DNA of 64,000 nucleotides from the NCBI GenBank assembly GCA_963766715.1, contig CAVYBH010000015.1, positions 256,001 through 320,000 of the forward strand, written 5' to 3'. The translations under genes were made by a program, and so were the position numbers. Position 1 is the stretch's first letter. Each line of letters starts with the position of its first letter. Below are positions 26,819 through 34,430 of this stretch, piece by piece. The notes below the pieces were generated by a model. That model saw nothing but the letters and a program-made list of their open reading frames with translations. It was not told the origin of the DNA and did not search any database. Source of the stretch: an uncultured delta proteobacterium. GTDB taxonomy: Bacteria; Myxococcota; Myxococcia; Myxococcales; Anaeromyxobacteraceae.

Positions 26819-27436
26819 TCAGGGACGCTCGACCTCGACCGCCTCGACCCAGACCTGCTCGCAGGCGCCCGAGCCGACGTCGTCCCGGGACAGGCTGGTG
26901 GGCGACTGGAAGGCGGTGCGCCCGGCGCGGTCCCGGATCACCACGTCGACGAGCTTGCCTCGGAGCGTCACCAGGTCGCCCTCGCGGATCCGCTTCATCT
27001 CCCGGGCCACCTCGTCCGACGCGGGCACCAGGTGGTGGTTCGCCACGTGGCGCTCGATGACCTGCTGCCCGGGAAAGGCCCCACCGCCGTCGTGCCACCA
27101 GCTGACGTACCGGCCGGAGAGGTGGAACTTCATGTGCGCCAGCACCTCGGGGGTGGCGACCGGGCCCCAGGCGAGGGCCAGGTCCATGGGGAGGACGAAG
27201 TCCCACTGATCGAGCAGCGTCCGGCTGGTGTCGACCGCGTAGCCGGTGATGCGGTAGCCGGCGCGCGGCGTGAGGGTGACGTGGTGCTCCTTGGCCTCGA
27301 ACTCGATGGGCGCCTCCCCGGCGAGCGCCACCTGCTCCGGCTCCGCCGCGGCGCGGGCCGGATCGACGCGGGCGCGCCAGTCCCGGCAGCCGGCGAGGAC
27401 GAGGAGCGCGGCCAGTGCCAGCCGGCGCGCGATCAT
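26819..27436 (-). CDS. Conserved hypothetical lipoprotein
   Basis: MIARRLALAALLVLAG-C lipobox; PMDLALAWG, ANHHLVPA, SLSRDDVGSGACE. Confidence 0.7.
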   Translation of the reverse strand: MIARRLALAALLVLAGCRDWRARVDPARAAAEPEQVALAGEAPIEFEAKEHHVTLTPRAGYRITGYAVDTSRTLLDQWDFVLPMDLALAWGPVATPEVLAHMKFHLSGRYVSWWHDGGGAFPGQQVIERHVANHHLVPASDEVAREMKRIREGDLVTLRGKLVDVVIRDRAGRTAFQSPTSLSRDDVGSGACEQVWVEAVEVERP

Positions 27437-27864
27437 GGGAGGCGGAGCACCATGCAGGCGGCCGAGGCGGGACAGAGCGACCGGAACTGGTCCCCCTCCC
27501 GGATCGAGGCGGGCACGAGCTCCCTCGGCACGTCCACGAAGCCGGCCCGGAGCGCCCGCTCTCGAACGGTGGTGGTGAGCAGGAAGAGGCGCCGGACCCC
27601 GAGCGCGGCGGCCTCCTTCACGGCGCGATCGTGCAGCGCCGCTCCCAGCCCCCGGCGGCGCTGGCCCGGGGCGACCGCGAAGGATCGCAGGAGCCCGTCC
27701 TGCCCGTGGACCTCGAACCCGATGCAGCCCAGGAGCTCCGCCCCGCTGCGGGCGACGAGGAAGCGCTGCCCGGGCCGACCGACGTCGTCGTCCTGCAGGG
27801 CGCAGGCCCGCAGGAGCGCGCGGATCTCCGGCAGGTCCCCGTCCGAGGCCCATCCGATGTCCAT
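27433..27864 (-). CDS. GNAT N-acetyltransferase, ArsN2-like
   Basis: GLLRSFAV, QRRRGLG acetyl-CoA loop, LFLLTTT, QFRSLCPASAACM. Confidence 0.75.
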   Translation of the reverse strand: MDIGWASDGDLPEIRALLRACALQDDDVGRPGQRFLVARSGAELLGCIGFEVHGQDGLLRSFAVAPGQRRRGLGAALHDRAVKEAAALGVRRLFLLTTTVRERALRAGFVDVPRELVPASIREGDQFRSLCPASAACMVLRLP

Positions 27865-27923
27865 GCGCCACCATACCCCGACGCCCCTCGGCACCGCGCC
27901 CCGAAGCGGGTTAACCTCCGGCC

Positions 27924-28679
27924 GTGCGCCTCGACACCTATGGCTGGCTGGTCCTCCTGGAGATCGCGCTGGCCGTCCCCACCCTGCTCTCGCTCGTCTT
28001 CATCCCCGCCCCCTACGGCCGTCACGAGCGGAAGGGCTGGGGCCCCACCATCCCCGCGCGGGTCGGCTGGATCGTCATGGAGAGCCCGGCGGTCTGGTTC
28101 TTCGCCTGGGTCTACTTCCAGGGCCCGAACGCGCTGCGGCCGGTGCCGCTCGTGCTGCTCGCCCTCTGGCAGCTCCACTACCTGTACCGGGCCTTCGTCT
28201 TCCCCTTCCTGCTGCGGGCCGAGGGGCGGCGCATGCCGGTCACGGTGGCCGCCATGGCCTTCCTCTTCAACCTGCTCAACAACTGGATCAATGCCCGCTG
28301 GATCTCGGCGATGGGCGACTATCCCGCCGGCTGGCTCTCCTCCACCCCGTTCCTGGTGGGCTCCGCGCTCTTCCTGGGGGGCTTCGCGCTCAACGTGACC
28401 TCCGACCGGACCCTGCGGAACCTCCGGGCCCCCGGGGAGACCGGCTACCGGATCCCCCGAGGCGGCGCCTTCGAGCTCGTCACCGCCCCCAACTACCTGG
28501 GCGAGATCATCGAATGGACCGGCTGGGCCATCCTGACCTGGTCGCCCGCCGGCCTGGCCTTCGCCGTCTACACCTTCGCCAACCTGGCCCCCCGCGCCGT
28601 CTCTCACCATCGCTGGTACCGGGAGCGCTTTCCCGACTACCCTGCGGGACGCAAGGCCTTCATCCCCTTCCTCCTCTAG
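27924..28679 (+). CDS. 3-oxo-5-alpha-steroid 4-dehydrogenase (SRD5A-type 5-alpha-reductase)
   Basis: APYGRH, WIVMESP, HYLYRA, SD..LRNLR..GETGYRIPRGG.FE.V..PNYLGEIIEW.G, PRAVSHHRWY...FPDYP..RKA.IPF. Confidence 0.92.
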   Translation: MRLDTYGWLVLLEIALAVPTLLSLVFIPAPYGRHERKGWGPTIPARVGWIVMESPAVWFFAWVYFQGPNALRPVPLVLLALWQLHYLYRAFVFPFLLRAEGRRMPVTVAAMAFLFNLLNNWINARWISAMGDYPAGWLSSTPFLVGSALFLGGFALNVTSDRTLRNLRAPGETGYRIPRGGAFELVTAPNYLGEIIEWTGWAILTWSPAGLAFAVYTFANLAPRAVSHHRWYRERFPDYPAGRKAFIPFLL

Positions 28680-28690
28680 GTGGACAAAGA

Positions 28691-29644
28691 GTGAAGATCC
28701 TCCTCACCGGACCCTTCGGCAACATCGGTTCCCACGTCATCCCCGAGCTGCTCCGCGAGGGGCACCAGGTCCGCGCCTTCGACCTGGACACCCCGGCGAC
28801 CCGCAAGGCGGCCCGCGACCTCGGCAAGAAGGTCGAGCCGGTCTGGGGCGACGTCCGCGACGCCCGGGCGGTCGCGCGGGCGGTCGAGGAGATGGACGCG
28901 GTGCTGCACCTGGCCGCGGTCATCCCCCCCGGGTCGGACGAGGACCCCGAGCGCACCCGGGCCGTGAACGTGCAGGGCACCGCGAACGTGGTGCAGGCCA
29001 TCCAGGGGCGCTCGCGCAAGCCGAAGCTCCTCCTCACCTCGACCTTCGACGTGCACGGCCACACGCTCCAGAAGCCGCCGCCCCGGCGGGTCGACGACCC
29101 CGTGGTGGGGACCGATCCGTACACGGAGAGCAAGATCGCGTCGGAGGCGCTGGTGCGCGAGTCGGGGCTGGACTGGTGCATCTTCCGGTTCACCGACGTG
29201 CCGATCATCGGCCTGCGCGACCCGCACCCGATCATGTTCGAGATCGGGCTCGACAACCGCATCGAGGCCCTCCACCCCGACGACGCCGCCACCGCGGTGG
29301 CCCGGGCGCTGCGGACGCCGGCGGTGTGGGGGCGCACCCTCTTCGTGGGCGGCGGAGCCTCCTGCCAGCTCACCTACCGCGAGTACCTCACCCGCATGCT
29401 CCGGGCCATGGGCATGGACATGCTGCCCGACGAGGCCTTCAGCGACGCCGAGTACCCCACCGACTGGGTGGACAGCGAGGAGTCGCAGCGCCTGCTCCGG
29501 TACCAGCGGCACAGCTTCGACGACATCACGGCCGACATCGCGAAGTGCCTGGGGTGGAAGAAGGCCTTCGTCCCCATGGCCTCGCCGATGGTCCGCAAGA
29601 AGATGCTGGAGATGTCGCCCTACTGGAAGCAGCGGCAGCGGTAG
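28691..29644 (+). CDS. Extended SDR, NAD-dependent epimerase / 3-beta-hydroxysteroid dehydrogenase-like
   Basis: TGPFGNIG, VLHLAA, NV.GT.N, YTESK catalytic motif; starts 11 nt after the SRD5A homolog. Confidence 0.8.
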   Translation: MKILLTGPFGNIGSHVIPELLREGHQVRAFDLDTPATRKAARDLGKKVEPVWGDVRDARAVARAVEEMDAVLHLAAVIPPGSDEDPERTRAVNVQGTANVVQAIQGRSRKPKLLLTSTFDVHGHTLQKPPPRRVDDPVVGTDPYTESKIASEALVRESGLDWCIFRFTDVPIIGLRDPHPIMFEIGLDNRIEALHPDDAATAVARALRTPAVWGRTLFVGGGASCQLTYREYLTRMLRAMGMDMLPDEAFSDAEYPTDWVDSEESQRLLRYQRHSFDDITADIAKCLGWKKAFVPMASPMVRKKMLEMSPYWKQRQR

Positions 29645-29680: not shown

Positions 29681-30463
29681 CTACTCGCCCGCGGCGGTCT
29701 TGTGGTGGGCGTGGCCGTGCGAGTGGGCCGACGCGATGTGCGGCTTCCCGTGGCGCCCCGGAAGCACCTTGGCCGGGCGCGCGCCCGGGCCGGCCGGGAT
29801 GGCGTCGTCGGGGGGCTTCGTCGCGAAGACGCGGTTGACGATCGGCGCCATGAGACCCAGGCTGGTGGCCGCCAGCTTGCGCAGCGGGTTGCGCGAGGCC
29901 TCGCCGTTGGGGAGCGGCTGGCTCCAGGCCTTCCCGAGCAGGTCCATGTACATCCCCACGGTCTGCCCCGCGGTGGCGAAGTCGAGCGTGGAGAGGATCT
30001 CGTCGGCCAGGCCGAACGGCATGGACGTCATGATGGGGCCGCGCATGTACTCGGTGGCCCAGACGCCGTCGGTGAAGTTCATGGCGCGAGCCTGGCCGGG
30101 TCCCACCCAGACGCGGTCGCCCGGCTTGTAGATCCGCTTCTCGAACTGCCCCTCGCCGAAGTAGTGCATCTCGCCGTCGATGACGGTGTCCCAGAAGCCG
30201 ACCGCGTGGCGCCCCGAGTGCCCCTCGGAGCCGATGGGGGTGCCCCAGATCATGAGGTATTCCATCGACGACGCGAAGTAGAGCTTCATCTGGATCATCG
30301 CGCCGCCGGCGATGCTGTACATCCAGGGCTGCGAGCGGTCAATCCGGCCCGGGTAGGCATCCTCCCAGGCGTCGGCGATGGCGTCGAACATCTCGGGCTT
30401 GGGCTTGCCGATCCCCTGCAGGGAACACTCGTGGATGACGTCGGCGTCGAAGATGTAGTCCAT
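29681..30463 (-). CDS. ERG2 / sigma-1 receptor family protein (C-8 sterol isomerase-like)
   Basis: W...AGGAM..M....AS..EYL.IWGT.IGSEGHSGRH, DTVIDG, Y.PGD....GPG.A, W..EY.RG.I....PFGLAD...STLDF, colinear with yeast ERG2 and human SIGMAR1 as recalled. Confidence 0.9.
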   Translation of the reverse strand: MDYIFDADVIHECSLQGIGKPKPEMFDAIADAWEDAYPGRIDRSQPWMYSIAGGAMIQMKLYFASSMEYLMIWGTPIGSEGHSGRHAVGFWDTVIDGEMHYFGEGQFEKRIYKPGDRVWVGPGQARAMNFTDGVWATEYMRGPIMTSMPFGLADEILSTLDFATAGQTVGMYMDLLGKAWSQPLPNGEASRNPLRKLAATSLGLMAPIVNRVFATKPPDDAIPAGPGARPAKVLPGRHGKPHIASAHSHGHAHHKTAAGE

Positions 30464-30541: not shown

Positions 30542-31577
30542 TCAGGCCCTCCCCGGGCGGCGGGGCGGGATGGGCCGGTTGAGGGGGCTGTCCGGGTGGG
30601 TCTTCATCCAGTCCCAGGCGTCCCGGAGCGTCTGCACGACCGGCCGCGGGGCATGGCCGAGCTCCTCGCGCGCCTTCCGGTCCCGGATCTCGAAGTCGAC
30701 GGCCAGGGTGTGCACCGCATAGGGGGTGAGGAGCGAGCGTCGCCCGGTGACCTTCTCGAAGACGGGCGCGAAGGCGGCGATCCCCGCGGCGACCCGGAGC
30801 GGGATGAAGACCCTCGGAGGCGTCCTCCCCGCCAGGCCGGCCAGGTTCCGCATCAGCTCGCGGACGGTCATGCGCTCCCCGGAGAGGAGGTAGCTCTCCC
30901 CCTTGCGCCCCCGCTCCGCGGCGAGCACGTGGCCGATGGCGACGTCGCGGACGTCGACGAAGTCGTAGCAGCCTTCCGTCCCCGCCGGCACGGGGAAGCG
31001 GGAGAACAGGACGATGACCTCCCCGATCTCGGAGAGCCGGTAGTCGTGGGGGCCGAGCACGTAGACCGGGTTCACGATCACCGCGTCCAGCCCGTCCCGG
31101 ACCGCGTCGAGCACGATCCGGGAGGCGGCGGCCTTGGCCTTGCCGTAGTCGCCGGGCGCGAGCGCCGGGTCGTAGCCGGCCTCCTCGGTGAGCACGCCCC
31201 CCTTGCCCGGCTCGGTGAGGGCGTGGACCGAGCTCGTGTAGACGAGCCGCCCCACCCCGGCCTCGCGCGCCGCCGCGACCACGTTCCGCGTCCCGTCGAC
31301 GTTCACGGTGCGTACGCTCTCGATGTCGAGCGAGCTGATGCTCACCACCCCGGCCAGGTGGAAGACCACGTCCGCCCCGGCGAAGGCCGCGGGCAGGGTC
31401 GTCGGGCCGCAGCACGTCGCCCTGCACCCGCTCCACGTCGAGGCCGGAGAGCGCGCGGGCCTCGTCGCCCGGCTGCACCAGCGCGCGAACCCGCTTCCCG
31501 CGCCGGAGGAGCTCGCGCACCAGCGCGTTGCCGAGGTGGCCGGTGGCCCCGGTGACGGTCGCGGTCTGGAAGTCCAT
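30542..31577 (-). CDS. Extended SDR, HpnA / dihydroflavonol-reductase / 3-beta-HSD-like (frameshift near 31400)
   Basis: VTGATGHLG, VFHLAG, NVDGTRNV, YTSSV, YGKAK, IVNP..V.GP.D, FVDVRDVA.GH. Confidence 0.82.
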
Positions 31578-31599
31578 GCGCGGGTTCGCTCCTCTTCCT

Positions 31600-32106
31600 T
31601 CAGGGCGAGGCCAGGAGGGCCTCGAGGGTTCGCTGCCGGTGGGCGAAGGTCCGCGCCATCTCGGGCCCCACGAAGAGCCGCTCGGCGATCGCGCCGAGGG
31701 GACCGAGGCCGACATCGTACTCGAGCAGGTCGCGAACCACCGTGCCCTCGCGCCCATCCACCCGGCGAGGCTCGAACTCGTGCCGGTGGGACCAGCGGCG
31801 GAAGGGTCCCCGCTCCTGGACGTCGGCGAAGTGGTGGTCGCGCTCGTACGAGACGATGCGGGCCACCCACTGGCTCCGGAGGGGCAGCGGCGGGAGCAGC
31901 CGCACCGAGACCACGATCTCGGTGCCGGCGCCGGCCTCCTCCGAGCCCGGGGAGGCGCCGGGCGGCGGCACCCGCACGATCCGCACGATCTCGGCCCCGA
32001 GCCGCGGCGGCATGATGCGCGGGAGGTTCCGCGGATCGGAGAAGAAGCGGAACACGCGGGGGAGCGGGACCGGGACCCACTGCTCGAACTGGATGCGCTG
32101 GCTCAT
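31600..32106 (-). CDS. SRPBCC (START/Bet v1-like) family protein
   Basis: VF.FFSDPRNL..I.PP, W.ARI, F.DVQ..GPF..W.H.H.F, F.HR. Confidence 0.82.
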   Translation of the reverse strand: MSQRIQFEQWVPVPLPRVFRFFSDPRNLPRIMPPRLGAEIVRIVRVPPPGASPGSEEAGAGTEIVVSVRLLPPLPLRSQWVARIVSYERDHHFADVQERGPFRRWSHRHEFEPRRVDGREGTVVRDLLEYDVGLGPLGAIAERLFVGPEMARTFAHRQRTLEALLASP

Positions 32107-32127: not shown

Positions 32128-32980
32128 TCACCACTCGAAGAAGTAGGAGAGCAGGACGCCCACCATGAAGACCTCGCCCTCGGCGGCCACGGGGTCGAGC
32201 GCGGTCTCGTACTCGGCCGCCAGCACCACCGATCGGCTGGCGGTGAGGAATCTCCCGGCGGTGAACTTGAGGAGCGACCCCACGTTTCCGTCCTGGAAGC
32301 TCCAGCTGGTCTTGTCCTGGGCCGACACGAAGAACCAGGCCGGCAGCGCCACCGAGACGGTGGGCTTGAGCTGGAGGGTGTTCACCGGCTTGTAGCTGCC
32401 CAGGTTGCCGAACGACTTCTGCCAGTTGAGCTCGACCGAGAGCGCCACGATGGAGGAGAGGCGGAAGGCGACCACGTAGACCGGCTCGATGATCCAGGGC
32501 TGGCCCACCGCGGCGTTCGTGCCGGTGTTCCACTGGAGCTCCAGCCCGGCCGCCTGCCGGATCCCCTCGTGCGCGTAGAAGGCCCAGAGGAGCGTGCTGG
32601 TGAGGCTCGCGAAGCCGGAGACGGTGGGCTCGCCGGCGGTGTTCGGGTAGTGGGTCTCGACGGGGATCTCCAGGCGGAGCGAGAACTCCCGCTCGACGCC
32701 CCAGACGAAGATCGGCTTGAAGGTGAACTCGCCCGTGGCGGCCCCGGCCGCCTTCTCGGTCCACTCGTACTTGAGCTGGAGCGTGTTGCGGGTGAAGACC
32801 GGCGAGTCCACCAGCTCCATGATGTCGAGCAGGTGCCGGAAGCCGTGGTCGTGGCCGCGCCGCTCCTCCGAGGTCTCGGCCTCCTTGCGCTCCGCTCCGC
32901 CTCCTCCTGGGCCCGGGCGGAGGGGAGCCAGCAGCAAGGCGAGCAGGGAGAGCGTCGCGAGCGCGGGTCGTGGGGCGCAT
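32128..32980 (-). CDS. Putative outer-membrane beta-barrel protein (N-terminal indels)
   Basis: Reconstructed signal peptide ...LATLSLLALLLAPSARA-QEE, alternating amphipathic strands, C-terminus LSYFFEW ending in an aromatic residue. Confidence 0.55.
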
Positions 32981-33113
32981 CCGTCGACTGTACGGCAGTC
33001 GCGGGCCGATCGAGGGGCTCGATGCGGGATGCCCCGATCGGGCGCTCCTGGCCCCCCGGATGAGCCCTCGTCACTGAGCGGCAACTGTCCCATTGTCGTG
33101 CGGGGGTGTGGCC

Positions 33114-34430
33114 ATGTTCTGGGTCGAGCTCGCCGTCGTCCTGGCGATGATCGTGATCGGGGCCCGCTACGGCGGCCTGGGCCTGGGGATGATGGGCGGG
33201 CTCGGGGTCGCGATCCTCGCGTTCCTCCTCGGCGATCTCCCGTCCAGCCCTCCCATCGAGGTCATGCTGATGATCGCCGCGGTGGTGACCGCGGCCGGGA
33301 CCCTGCAGGCGGCGGGGGGCATGGACTACCTCGTCGACCTGGCCGAGAAGGCGCTTCGCCGCTACCCGCCGGCGATGACCTTCGTGGCGCCGCTCGTCGC
33401 CTACGTCTTCACGCTCTTCGCGGGGACGGGGCACGTCGCCTACGCCATCCTCCCCGTCATCGCCGAGGTCTCCCGGGAGGCCGGCGTGCGGCCGGAGCGG
33501 CCCCTCTCCATCTCGGTCATCGCCTCGCAGCAGGCCATCACCGCGAGCCCCATCTCGGCCGCCACGGTGGCCCTGCTCGTCCTCCTCGAGGGAACGGCAT
33601 CACGCTCGGCGGGCTCCTCGCGGTGTGCATCCCCGCCACGCTCCTGGGCGTCCTGGCCGGCGCGCTCGTCGCGAGCCGCATGGGCAAGGAGCTCGACGTG
33701 GACCCGGAGTACCTGCGGCGACTGGCCGAGGGGGAGATCGAGCCCCACGGACAGATCGGCCGCCCGGCCGCCACCTGGCAGGCGAAGGCTCGGTGGTCCT
33801 CTTCGTCCTCGGCGCCATGTCCATCGTCGCCTTCGGGTCGTTCCCGGCGCTGCGCCCCAGCTACGCGTCGGGCGGCAAGGTGGTCCAGATGGAGATGGCC
33901 GACGCCATCGAGATGGTGATGCTCTCGATCGCGGCGCTGATGGTGATGGTCTGCAAGGCGAAGGTGGAGAAGGTGGCCCACGGCTCGGTCTTCCAGGCCG
34001 GCATGCAGGCGGTGATCGCCATCTTCGGCGTGGCCTGGATGGGGGACACCTTCTTCAAGGCCAACCAGGCCACCGTCCAGGGACCGATGACGGCCATGGT
34101 GACAGGGCGCGCCGTGGACCTTCGCCATCGCGCTCTTCGTGATGTCGATCCTGCTCTACAGCCAGGCCGCCACCGTCCGCACGCTCGTCCCGCTGGGCGT
34201 CTCCATCGGGATGCCGGGCTGGGCGCTGGTGGGGATGTTCCCGGCGGTGAACGGCTACTTCTTCCTGCCCAACTACCCCGACCCTGGTGGCCGCCATCAA
34301 CTTCGACCGGACCGGCACCACCCGGATCGGCAAGTACCTGCTCAACCACAGCTTCATGATCCCGGGGCTCGTCGCCTCCGTCGTCTCGGTGGCGTCCGGG
34401 CTCCTGCTCGCGCGATTCATCCTCCTGTAG
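33114..34430 (+). CDS. Anaerobic C4-dicarboxylate transporter DcuA/DcuB (about 4 frameshifts)
   Basis: [34 protein letters not shown]...[63 protein letters not shown]. Confidence 0.9.

Follow-up and report, generated by a model that had tools for sequence, protein, structure and literature searches.

What does a member of the ERG2/sigma-1 receptor family do in a soil bacterium in whose genome we detected no sterol pathway? The question is raised by a gene, here called ERG2L, in a 64,000-nucleotide stretch of DNA (the window) that spans positions 256,001 to 320,000 of contig CAVYBH010000015.1 in GenBank assembly GCA_963766715.1. The host is a soil myxobacterium of the Anaeromyxobacteraceae, represented by a metagenome-assembled genome (MAG) of 4.2 Mb in 18 contigs that is 84.6% complete. 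We found that ERG2L is a true member of the ERG2/sigma-1 family, with a predicted cupin-like barrel, both acidic residues of the sigma-1 pocket and no membrane anchor, that it falls in a clade of its own, and that its relatives often lie beside genes for short-chain dehydrogenases/reductases (SDRs) and for a homologue of steroid 5-alpha-reductase (SRD5A). Tentatively, and with somewhat less than even confidence, we read ERG2L as a peripheral isomerase of double bonds, belonging to a cassette for the reduction of exogenous steroid-like lipids.

The ERG2L open reading frame (ORF; 29681..30463, minus strand) starts with ATG and encodes 260 amino acids (aa) followed by a stop codon. With a GC of 0.96 at third codon positions it behaves like the genuine genes of the window, whose overall GC is 72%, and a GGAG is located 7 nt 5' of the ATG. 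Upstream of the ATG the frame runs into a stop after 12 codons, and the preceding gene ends at 30542; because of these 12 open codons and that gene end, an N-terminal transmembrane (TM) helix hidden by a wrongly chosen start is impossible. A preliminary description of the window had proposed a bacterial homologue of sigma-1 and ERG2 without a hydrophobic N-terminal anchor, and this was borne out: the protein starts 2 residues before the domain motif, opens directly at that motif without a signal peptide or TM segment, and holds no hydrophobic 19-residue stretch.

Family membership was supported by the ORF itself, profile and sequence matches, and a structural model. ERG2L matched the Pfam profile PF04622 (ERG2_Sigma1R) with E=1.2e-43 and 149.3 bits (cut-off 21), residues 2-174 covering positions 21-200 of the 210-position profile and leaving its start unmatched. 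This domain (29942..30460, minus strand), delimited by Pfam, phmmer and the model, holds residues D92 and E138. A phmmer search against the PDB returned sigma-1 receptors only, human sigma-1 (5HK1) with E=3.6e-28 and 102 bits. In the 5HK1 alignment the ERG2L segment 'fwDtvidg' pairs with 'isDtiisg' and 'watEymrg' with 'wmvEygrg', so D92 and E138 are the retained equivalents of sigma-1 D126 and E172, as had been proposed. The human residue numbers used here (D126/E172, E57/Y91 and others) are matched to the printed alignments; for sigma-1, an offset of 34 fits the alignment when the 4 extra residues of the chain are taken into account. Residues E138, H82, R85, E68, Y69 and D154 are invariant in 79/79 aligned sequences spanning two clades, and D92 is invariant in a 16-sequence alignment of the ERG2L clade, where mean column identity is 63%.

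An AlphaFold2 model built on the 79-sequence alignment reached a mean predicted local distance difference test score (pLDDT) of 89.1 and a predicted template modelling score (pTM) of 0.81. In the predicted protein, two N-terminal helices precede the strands of the beta-barrel (residues 48-141); more helices follow at 144-181 and one at 193-212, and the tail is disordered. When this model was compared with the PDB by Foldseek, the top 40-odd matches were all human or Xenopus sigma-1 receptors (E ~1e-18, root-mean-square deviation 1.3-1.5 Å, 182-184 columns, 31-32% identity), followed by small cupins. The superposition that the preliminary description had suggested thus places the predicted model 1.3 Å from human sigma-1 (5HK1, 184 columns); the cupin-like barrel is present in the predicted fold, and the ERG2_Sigma1R profile match is significant. 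With the pocket lining judged from alignments, the model has a closed, sigma-1-type lipid pocket in which the invariant Glu (E138) is buried, with the clade-invariant Asp (D92) as its partner.

How far these features extend beyond ERG2L was scored on the best 120 of 527 homologues found at E≤1e-3 by a word-index search. Among these 120, 115 start no more than 3 residues from a [YFH]-x-F-D-P motif and 5 have 8-18 additional N-terminal residues; the mean Kyte-Doolittle hydropathy of 19-residue windows peaks at 1.53, so that none reaches 1.6. Bacterial proteins of 185 aa from the ERG2 clade likewise have no anchor and start at the conserved F-D-P motif. The loss of the anchor is therefore real in ERG2L but not special to it, being general among bacterial members. 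The counterparts of the membrane-facing helices of sigma-1 (helices 144-181) have a mean Kyte-Doolittle value of 0.54 versus 0.86 in bird sigma-1, and a membrane association of ERG2L is plausible.

The extra C-terminal stretch pointed out in the preliminary description is also real. It begins with a clade-specific helix (residues 193-212; 29828..29887, minus strand), assigned by DSSP on the predicted model with pLDDT blocks of 96-97 and moderately amphipathic (hydrophobic moment muH 0.36, mean hydrophobicity <H> 0.17), and continues as a disordered, low-complexity tail (residues 213-260; 29684..29827, minus strand; pLDDT 53-80). Throughout the clade this extension is 40-100 residues long and consists of a helix, a P-x-D-x-I-P motif and a basic low-complexity tail of varying length; with its motif it is conserved in the clade and missing from the 185-aa ERG2-clade proteins. 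The 48 residues of the ERG2L tail include 7 His, among them the run HIASAHSHGHAHH at residues 242-254 (29702-29740, minus strand). The tail is thus His-rich as described, but this trait is idiosyncratic and not conserved: over the last 30 residues of the best 120 homologues, one (P0003) has 4 His and all others have 0-2. The His-rich run is peculiar to ERG2L and its nearest kin, and this lack of conservation among the homologues led us to reject a conserved metal site there.

The place of ERG2L within the family was examined on several scales. A HMMER search against 1.84 billion representatives returned 564 family members at E≤1e-3 and 32 at E≤1e-30. These representatives stand at the 50% identity level and most are uncharacterised; the ERG2L clade accounts for about one full-length representative (62% identity), after which identity drops to ~40%. 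In the phylum of the host, PF04622-type matches occurred in 33/401 sampled genomes and fell into three score classes, of 212-260 bits (two genomes), 150-169 bits (the ERG2L clade) and 54-61 bits (distant proteins). The top class is the anchor-less 185-aa protein with the F-D-P motif at its start; among its 2,522 relatives are proteins named 'ERG2 family protein' by NCBI in Paraliomyxa miuraensis and Sandaracinaceae and a protein of Enhygromyxa salina, and it matches human sigma-1 with 137 bits versus 102 bits for ERG2L. At the position of sigma-1 D126, this ERG2-type group has an aromatic residue after an acidic pair (D-D-Y-F type); Asp stands there in the ERG2L clade, in sigma-1 and in many other unnamed groups, and is absent from the ERG2 clade proper.

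We gathered 134 sequences, dropped 24 that covered fewer than 168 of 172 domain positions, and built a quick tree of the remaining 110 rows. Three clades were defined on this tree and their names looked up afterwards: one is anchored by C-8 sterol isomerases of Eremothecium and Auriculariales, another by canary SIGMAR1 (P0332). A careful maximum-likelihood tree of 69 of the 110 rows, root unknown, was assessed with ultrafast bootstrap (UFBoot) and SH-aLRT supports. In this tree the ERG2L clade (100/99) lies outside both the ERG2 clade (100/99), which joins fungal ERG2 with Enhygromyxa-type bacterial proteins of sterol producers, and the sigma-1 clade (100/93); together with seven unnamed rows, the ERG2L clade is supported at 97/94. 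A phylogeny of the kind proposed in the preliminary description thus places ERG2L in neither named clade. The idea that ERG2L would inform the transition from enzyme to receptor was not supported, for it represents a separate third clade and not a stage on a path from ERG2 to sigma-1.

Other members of the family differ in architecture or context. The nearest outgroup of the ERG2L clade, a metagenomic protein of 360 aa (P0247), has a non-hydrophobic N-terminal extension of ~150 residues before the domain. The distant proteins of 54-61 bits come from a genome of another family of the phylum (L112:1222-2127) and three sister genomes, of 1.1-3.4 Mb; the L112 protein has 301 aa, a signal-peptide-like N-terminus and ~100 additional residues ahead of the domain. 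In a 10-Mb myxobacterial genome (L088:726-3539), the gene for the 185-aa ERG2-clade protein sits between a SnoaL_2 (NTF2-like) gene and a FAD_binding_2 oxidoreductase gene, a context unlike that of the ERG2L clade.

The distribution of ERG2L is dense close to the host and patchy beyond it. The nearest public loci, labelled Anaeromyxobacter or Anaeromyxobacteraceae, encode proteins 88-96% identical to ERG2L. The gene was present in 13/13 other genomes of the genus, in 2/11 genomes of other genera in the family, and in 0/16 genomes from other families of the same order. Relatives were encoded by 136 of 185,579 species genomes, and our locus analyses cover 80 loci kept from these 136 carriers, with taxon groups assigned from record titles. 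The 80 loci belong to Anaeromyxobacteraceae, other Myxococcota, Actinomycetota (Micromonosporaceae, Pseudonocardiaceae), Spirochaetota and Chloroflexota; none is from Brachyspira. Carriers in culture are Rugosimonospora africana NBRC 104875, R. acidiphila JCM 18304 and Amycolatopsis alkalitolerans. The hosts are soil, peat and sediment lineages, many of them labelled as lineages of anaerobes (Dehalococcoidales, Spirochaetia). Protein identity of ~60-70% between distant phyla, combined with this patchy distribution, points to horizontal spread of ERG2L among phyla.

We searched the 80 loci for the window neighbours of ERG2L with tblastn and, independently of these queries, clustered all ORFs within 6 kb without supervision; in 14/80 loci one of the two flanks is shorter than 3 kb. 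The commonest neighbour turned out to be a classical SDR that is missing from the window's own locus. It lies within 1.5 kb of ERG2L in 41/80 loci, where it is the nearest gene, and does so in every taxon group save the genus of the window. Its gene is either convergent and downstream or on the same strand and upstream, the latter in 13 loci with gaps of 35-108 bp. An extended SDR, SDR_A, occurs within 4 kb in 34/80 loci and SRD5A within 5 kb in 25/80. At least one of these three partners was found in 61/80 loci, from five phyla or taxon groups, and all three in 8/80. When 52 ORFs of eight diverse loci were scanned with Pfam, nothing proved consistently linked beyond SDRs and SRD5A; the remaining neighbours (transporters, kinases, sugar enzymes and others) differ from locus to locus.

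SRD5A also tracks ERG2L at the level of whole genomes. A strong SRD5A match (E≤5e-47) was found in 16/16 ERG2L-positive relatives of the host versus 3/25 ERG2L-negative ones (plus one intermediate match), a contrast among kin that is no statistical test. Five carriers without an adjacent SRD5A gene were tested, and three of them have a strong SRD5A match elsewhere in the genome. A gene of the cyclopropane-fatty-acyl synthase family (CMAS; L034:6470-7921, E=1.6e-94) precedes ERG2L in a Spirochaetia MAG, on the same strand and with its end ~80 bp away, a single case that hints at a non-steroid lipid context.

Within the window, two genes on the plus strand converge on ERG2L. The SRD5A homologue (27924..28679, plus strand; 251 aa; PF02544, Steroid_dh, E=7.1e-53) matches the bacterial PbSRD5A structure 7C83 with E=1.1e-88 and human SRD5A2 (7BW1) with E=3.6e-47, compared with E=2.5e-13 for very-long-chain enoyl-CoA reductase in the PDB. 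It keeps the Glu and Tyr that align with human catalytic residues E57 and Y91, so that a reductase of SRD5A1/2 type with its catalytic pair adjoins SDR dehydrogenase genes. The first of these, SDR_A (28676..29644, plus strand; Epimerase E=3.9e-23, 3Beta_HSD E=5.4e-20), overlaps the SRD5A stop codon, although its true start may be a GTG at 28691, and ends 36 bp from the ERG2L stop. On the other side of SRD5A lie two minus-strand genes, one for a GNAT acetyltransferase (27433-27894) and one a lipoprotein-like ORF without a family (26819-27424); they are kept at the same place in most genomes of the genus and have no evident link to the cassette. No BaiCD-type flavin 5-beta-reductase turned up among the ORFs scanned at 26.8-33.1 kb, where no search was aimed at one.

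Upstream of ERG2L, an operon is read on the minus strand. In the genus of the window, the same-strand gene directly upstream is SDR_B (30542..31580, minus strand), an extended SDR whose best NCBIfam matches are HpnA (E=1.3e-77) and SdmB, a sterol demethylase protein (E=4.5e-66), both below the cut-offs. Its frame is broken near 31390-31400 in this assembly, leaving two frames; an intact orthologue of 344 aa is found in a relative (L011). Next comes a small SRPBCC/START-like protein of 168 aa (31600..32106, minus strand; Polyketide_cyc E=4.7e-8), and the first gene of the operon encodes a probable outer-membrane beta-barrel protein (32128..33093, minus strand). The true start of the latter probably lies downstream of the first ATG, and the 286-aa L011 orthologue has an aromatic C-terminal residue. 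This protein has no Pfam match even at E≤1, and its nearest Atlas clusters are unnamed, PF13557 (Phenol_MetA_deg) in 10% of one cluster's members being a weak lead. NCBIfam has no model for it, for the SRPBCC protein or for ERG2L. In L011 all four genes are intact and in the same order (outer-membrane protein, SRPBCC, SDR_B, ERG2L), with gaps of 13, 21 and 82 bp.

Two other genes of the host share the interrupted state of SDR_B. A DcuA_DcuB anaerobic C4-dicarboxylate transporter gene (33093-34150) matches its profile over the N-terminal 156 positions (E=7.7e-72), after which the frame changes, and the host's own orthologue of the classical SDR lies away from the ERG2L locus, on contig 12 (C12:340373-341153), in two frames. 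Assembly indels seem a likelier cause of the three broken frames than pseudogene formation.

Taken together, this context suggests a role for ERG2L in reducing steroid-like lipids. We infer that the protein acts on such a substrate class by catalysis rather than binding, and we assign on the same footing which way the pathway runs, which double bond shifts and that the protein associates with the membrane. ERG2L would be a cytoplasmic, probably membrane-peripheral protein. Its ligand would be a polycyclic, steroid-like lipid acquired from the surroundings and, like ERG2, the protein would relocate a double bond in a ring of this lipid through protonation and deprotonation. Its partners would be the NAD(P)-dependent SDR_A and SDR_B, the classical SDR in other genomes, and the membrane 5-alpha-reductase of SRD5A type. 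In such a pathway an SDR would oxidise a 3-beta-hydroxy-delta-5 steroid to the 3-ketone, the double bond would then be brought into conjugation, at the position needed by the reductase (the candidate step for ERG2L), SRD5A would reduce the 3-oxo-delta-4 bond, and an SDR would finally reduce the ketone, giving a 5-alpha-saturated, stanol-type compound.

Several findings are consistent with this proposal. In the genus of the window the operon also holds the predicted outer-membrane protein and the START-like protein, and the named families nearest to SDR_B (HpnA, SdmB) are associated with triterpenoids. Judging by PDB entry titles, Xenopus sigma-1 has been crystallised with progesterone and with dehydroepiandrosterone (DHEA) sulfate. 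PbSRD5A is reported to reduce progesterone to 5α-dihydroprogesterone in vitro (PMC7815742), and a Bacteroidetes cluster with a 5-beta-reductase, an SRD5A1 homologue and a 3-beta-hydroxysteroid dehydrogenase (HSDH) is reported to make isoallolithocholic acid (isoalloLCA; bioRxiv 10.1101/2021.01.08.425963).

Other observations weigh against an isomerase in a steroid-reducing cassette. None of the three partners lies nearby in 19/80 loci, and a strong SRD5A match is missing altogether in two of the five tested carriers, Amycolatopsis alkalitolerans and a Spirochaetia genome. The relatives of SDR_A in the PDB are generic extended SDRs only, and the best named NCBIfam matches of the classical SDR, mycolate reductase at the top and 7-beta-HSDH, are far below the cut-offs. 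The absences of sterol genes described below come from MAGs, the host's being incomplete, and are not proof. ERG2L lies outside the only clade with proven isomerases. The delta-5 to delta-4 shift in ketosteroids is normally carried out by enolisation in unrelated enzymes, and we know of no precedent for the proposed delta-5 to delta-4 step in the ERG2/sigma-1 family. All bacterial members of the family lack biochemical characterisation (PMC8237579), sigma-1, described as having the same fold without a known isomerase activity (PMC10094450), is an example of how this fold may lose catalysis, and the native substrate of PbSRD5A is given as not known, its crystal pocket having held monoolein (PMC7815742).

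The name that automatic annotation by the Joint Genome Institute (JGI) gives to many homologues, C-8 sterol isomerase, would make ERG2L an enzyme of a de novo bacterial sterol pathway. Membership in PF04622 agrees with this name, and some Myxococcota are reported to make sterols and to carry ERG2 homologues (PMC8237579). Yet the host genome has no match to the triterpene cyclase domain SQHop_cyclase_C, squalene epoxidase or P450, controls being positive for all three, and among 41 relatives a triterpene cyclase was found in 0/16 ERG2L-positive versus 10/25 ERG2L-negative genomes; in 12/16 of the positive relatives, completeness is 90% or more and contamination 5% or less. (A search for ERG4_ERG24 was uninformative, its control being silent everywhere.) In addition, ERG2L falls outside the ERG2 clade that holds the Enhygromyxa salina and fungal enzymes, and many carriers bear the labels of anaerobe lineages. 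Because the cyclase, epoxidase and P450 gave no match in the host genome (84.6% complete) and the cyclase none in the 16 carrier relatives, we rejected a de novo sterol pathway and consider a C-8 isomerase function largely refuted and very improbable; the automatic name is probably wrong for the ERG2L clade.

The same lack of a detected sterol or hopanoid pathway in the hosts speaks for another reading, in which ERG2L would isomerise or bind a lipid that is no steroid; candidates are polyprenols and other isoprenoids, unsaturated acyl chains and secondary metabolites. In that case the SRD5A-family and SDR partners would have the activity of polyprenal or enoyl reductases and of ketoacyl reductases. 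Steroid_dh indeed includes enoyl and polyprenol reductases, as the enoyl-CoA reductase match of the window protein illustrates, and mycolate reductase heads the list for the classical SDR. The cyclopropane-fatty-acid synthase gene directly upstream of ERG2L at L034 and the acyl lipid reported in the PbSRD5A pocket (PMC7815742) point the same way. The window reductase is nevertheless far closer to the SRD5A1/2 type (1e-88, 4e-47) than to enoyl reductase (2.5e-13), and SDR_B is nearest to triterpenoid-associated families. To our knowledge, moreover, the ligands and substrates known for the ERG2/sigma-1 fold are all sterols, steroids or cationic mimics of the sterol carbocation. We regard a non-steroid ligand as a serious but fairly unlikely alternative, and we say the same of partners working as polyprenal, enoyl or ketoacyl reductases. 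A little less likely again is a non-catalytic, sigma-1-like binder of lipids or steroids, serving either as a sensor or as a carrier or gate that draws a hydrophobic substrate from the membrane and passes it on to SRD5A and the SDRs. Such a role would suit the Asp at the D126 position, which ERG2L shares with sigma-1 and the catalytic ERG2 clade lacks, the existence of the fold in sigma-1 without a known isomerase activity (PMC10094450), and the SRPBCC protein, whose lipid-binding family makes lipid handling a part of the locus. Identity of ~60-70% between phyla and long invariant motifs (G-S-E-G-H-S-G-R-H) are more typical of an enzyme, however, and the fixed pairing is with oxidoreductases rather than with regulators or transporters.

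The isomerase reading can be carried one speculative step further. The ERG2L-SDR-SRD5A set might be a horizontally spread cassette for the hydrogenation of exogenous sterols to 5-alpha-stanols by anaerobic bacteria of soil and sediment, ERG2L providing a carbocation-type isomerisation; candidate hosts would be Anaeromyxobacteraceae, Spirochaetota, Dehalococcoidales and some actinomycetes. We consider this idea improbable as it stands. We know of no genes assigned to the long-observed reduction of sterols to stanols in reducing settings. The 5α- and 5β-stanols are attributed to natural sterol reduction in such settings (PMC12179283), and the outer membranes of Brachyspira contain cholesterol and cholestanol according to a review (PMC4683989), neither report being tied to the genes described here. 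If the idea were true, a geochemical redox proxy would be tied to genes, ERG2L would be the first bacterial protein of the sigma-1/ERG2 fold with a functional place outside sterol biosynthesis, and steroid handling by the fold would be suggested to predate the eukaryotic receptor.

Apart from that idea, the analysis corrects an annotation, the label 'C-8 sterol isomerase' being probably wrong for the ERG2L clade, and the linkage with SRD5A suggests a physiological context for bacterial 5α-reductases of PbSRD5A type. The sigma-1 field is still described as regarding the receptor as an evolutionary isolate with yeast ERG2 as its only known homologue (PMC10094450), a picture that contrasts with the 564 mostly uncharacterised family representatives found here. 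Because its members are anchor-less, highly conserved and present in cultured actinomycetes, the ERG2L clade offers an accessible system for a role of the fold outside sterol synthesis. Hoshino and Gaucher (PNAS 2021, PMC8237579) placed bacterial ERG2 homologues in a tree and describe all of them as uncharacterised and their ancestral function as unclear; for Methylotuvimicrobium, a C-8 isomerase has been mentioned (J Bacteriol 2026). Judged by title and abstract, the literature on ERG2/sigma-1, bacterial homologues and cupins held nothing on the ERG2L clade, and we found nothing in print on the linkage of SRD5A with extended SDRs, the absence of cyclases in carriers, or the separation from both named clades.

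Among known systems, ERG2L resembles the animal sigma-1 receptors (5HK1, 6DJZ, 7W2B, 8W4B) in the fold of its predicted model and in both acidic pocket residues, and the equivalents of E102, Y103 and R119 (numbered by offset) are invariant in its alignment. Unlike these receptors, it lacks the N-terminal TM helix, belongs to a separate clade, has an extra C-terminal helix and tail and a less hydrophobic counterpart of the membrane-facing helices, and is encoded among bacterial oxidoreductase genes. With fungal ERG2 and the 185-aa bacterial ERG2 proteins of Enhygromyxa salina and Paraliomyxa miuraensis, ERG2L shares PF04622, and with the bacterial ones the missing anchor and F-D-P start. The ERG2 clade differs in its higher scores on the Pfam model (212-260 versus 150-169 bits) and in its D-D-Y-F type motif, with an aromatic residue where ERG2L and sigma-1 have Asp; for its part, ERG2L stands apart in a host without a sterol pathway match and in its clade's C-terminal extension. 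The closest parallel to the gene context is the isoalloLCA cluster, together with PbSRD5A: here too, as reported, a bacterial SRD5A homologue lies beside SDRs of hydroxysteroid dehydrogenase type, and its substrates are exogenous steroids. The accessible part of that report (bioRxiv 10.1101/2021.01.08.425963) mentions no ERG2-like gene for the cluster, and its hosts are gut Bacteroidetes, whereas those of ERG2L are lineages of soil, peat and sediment.

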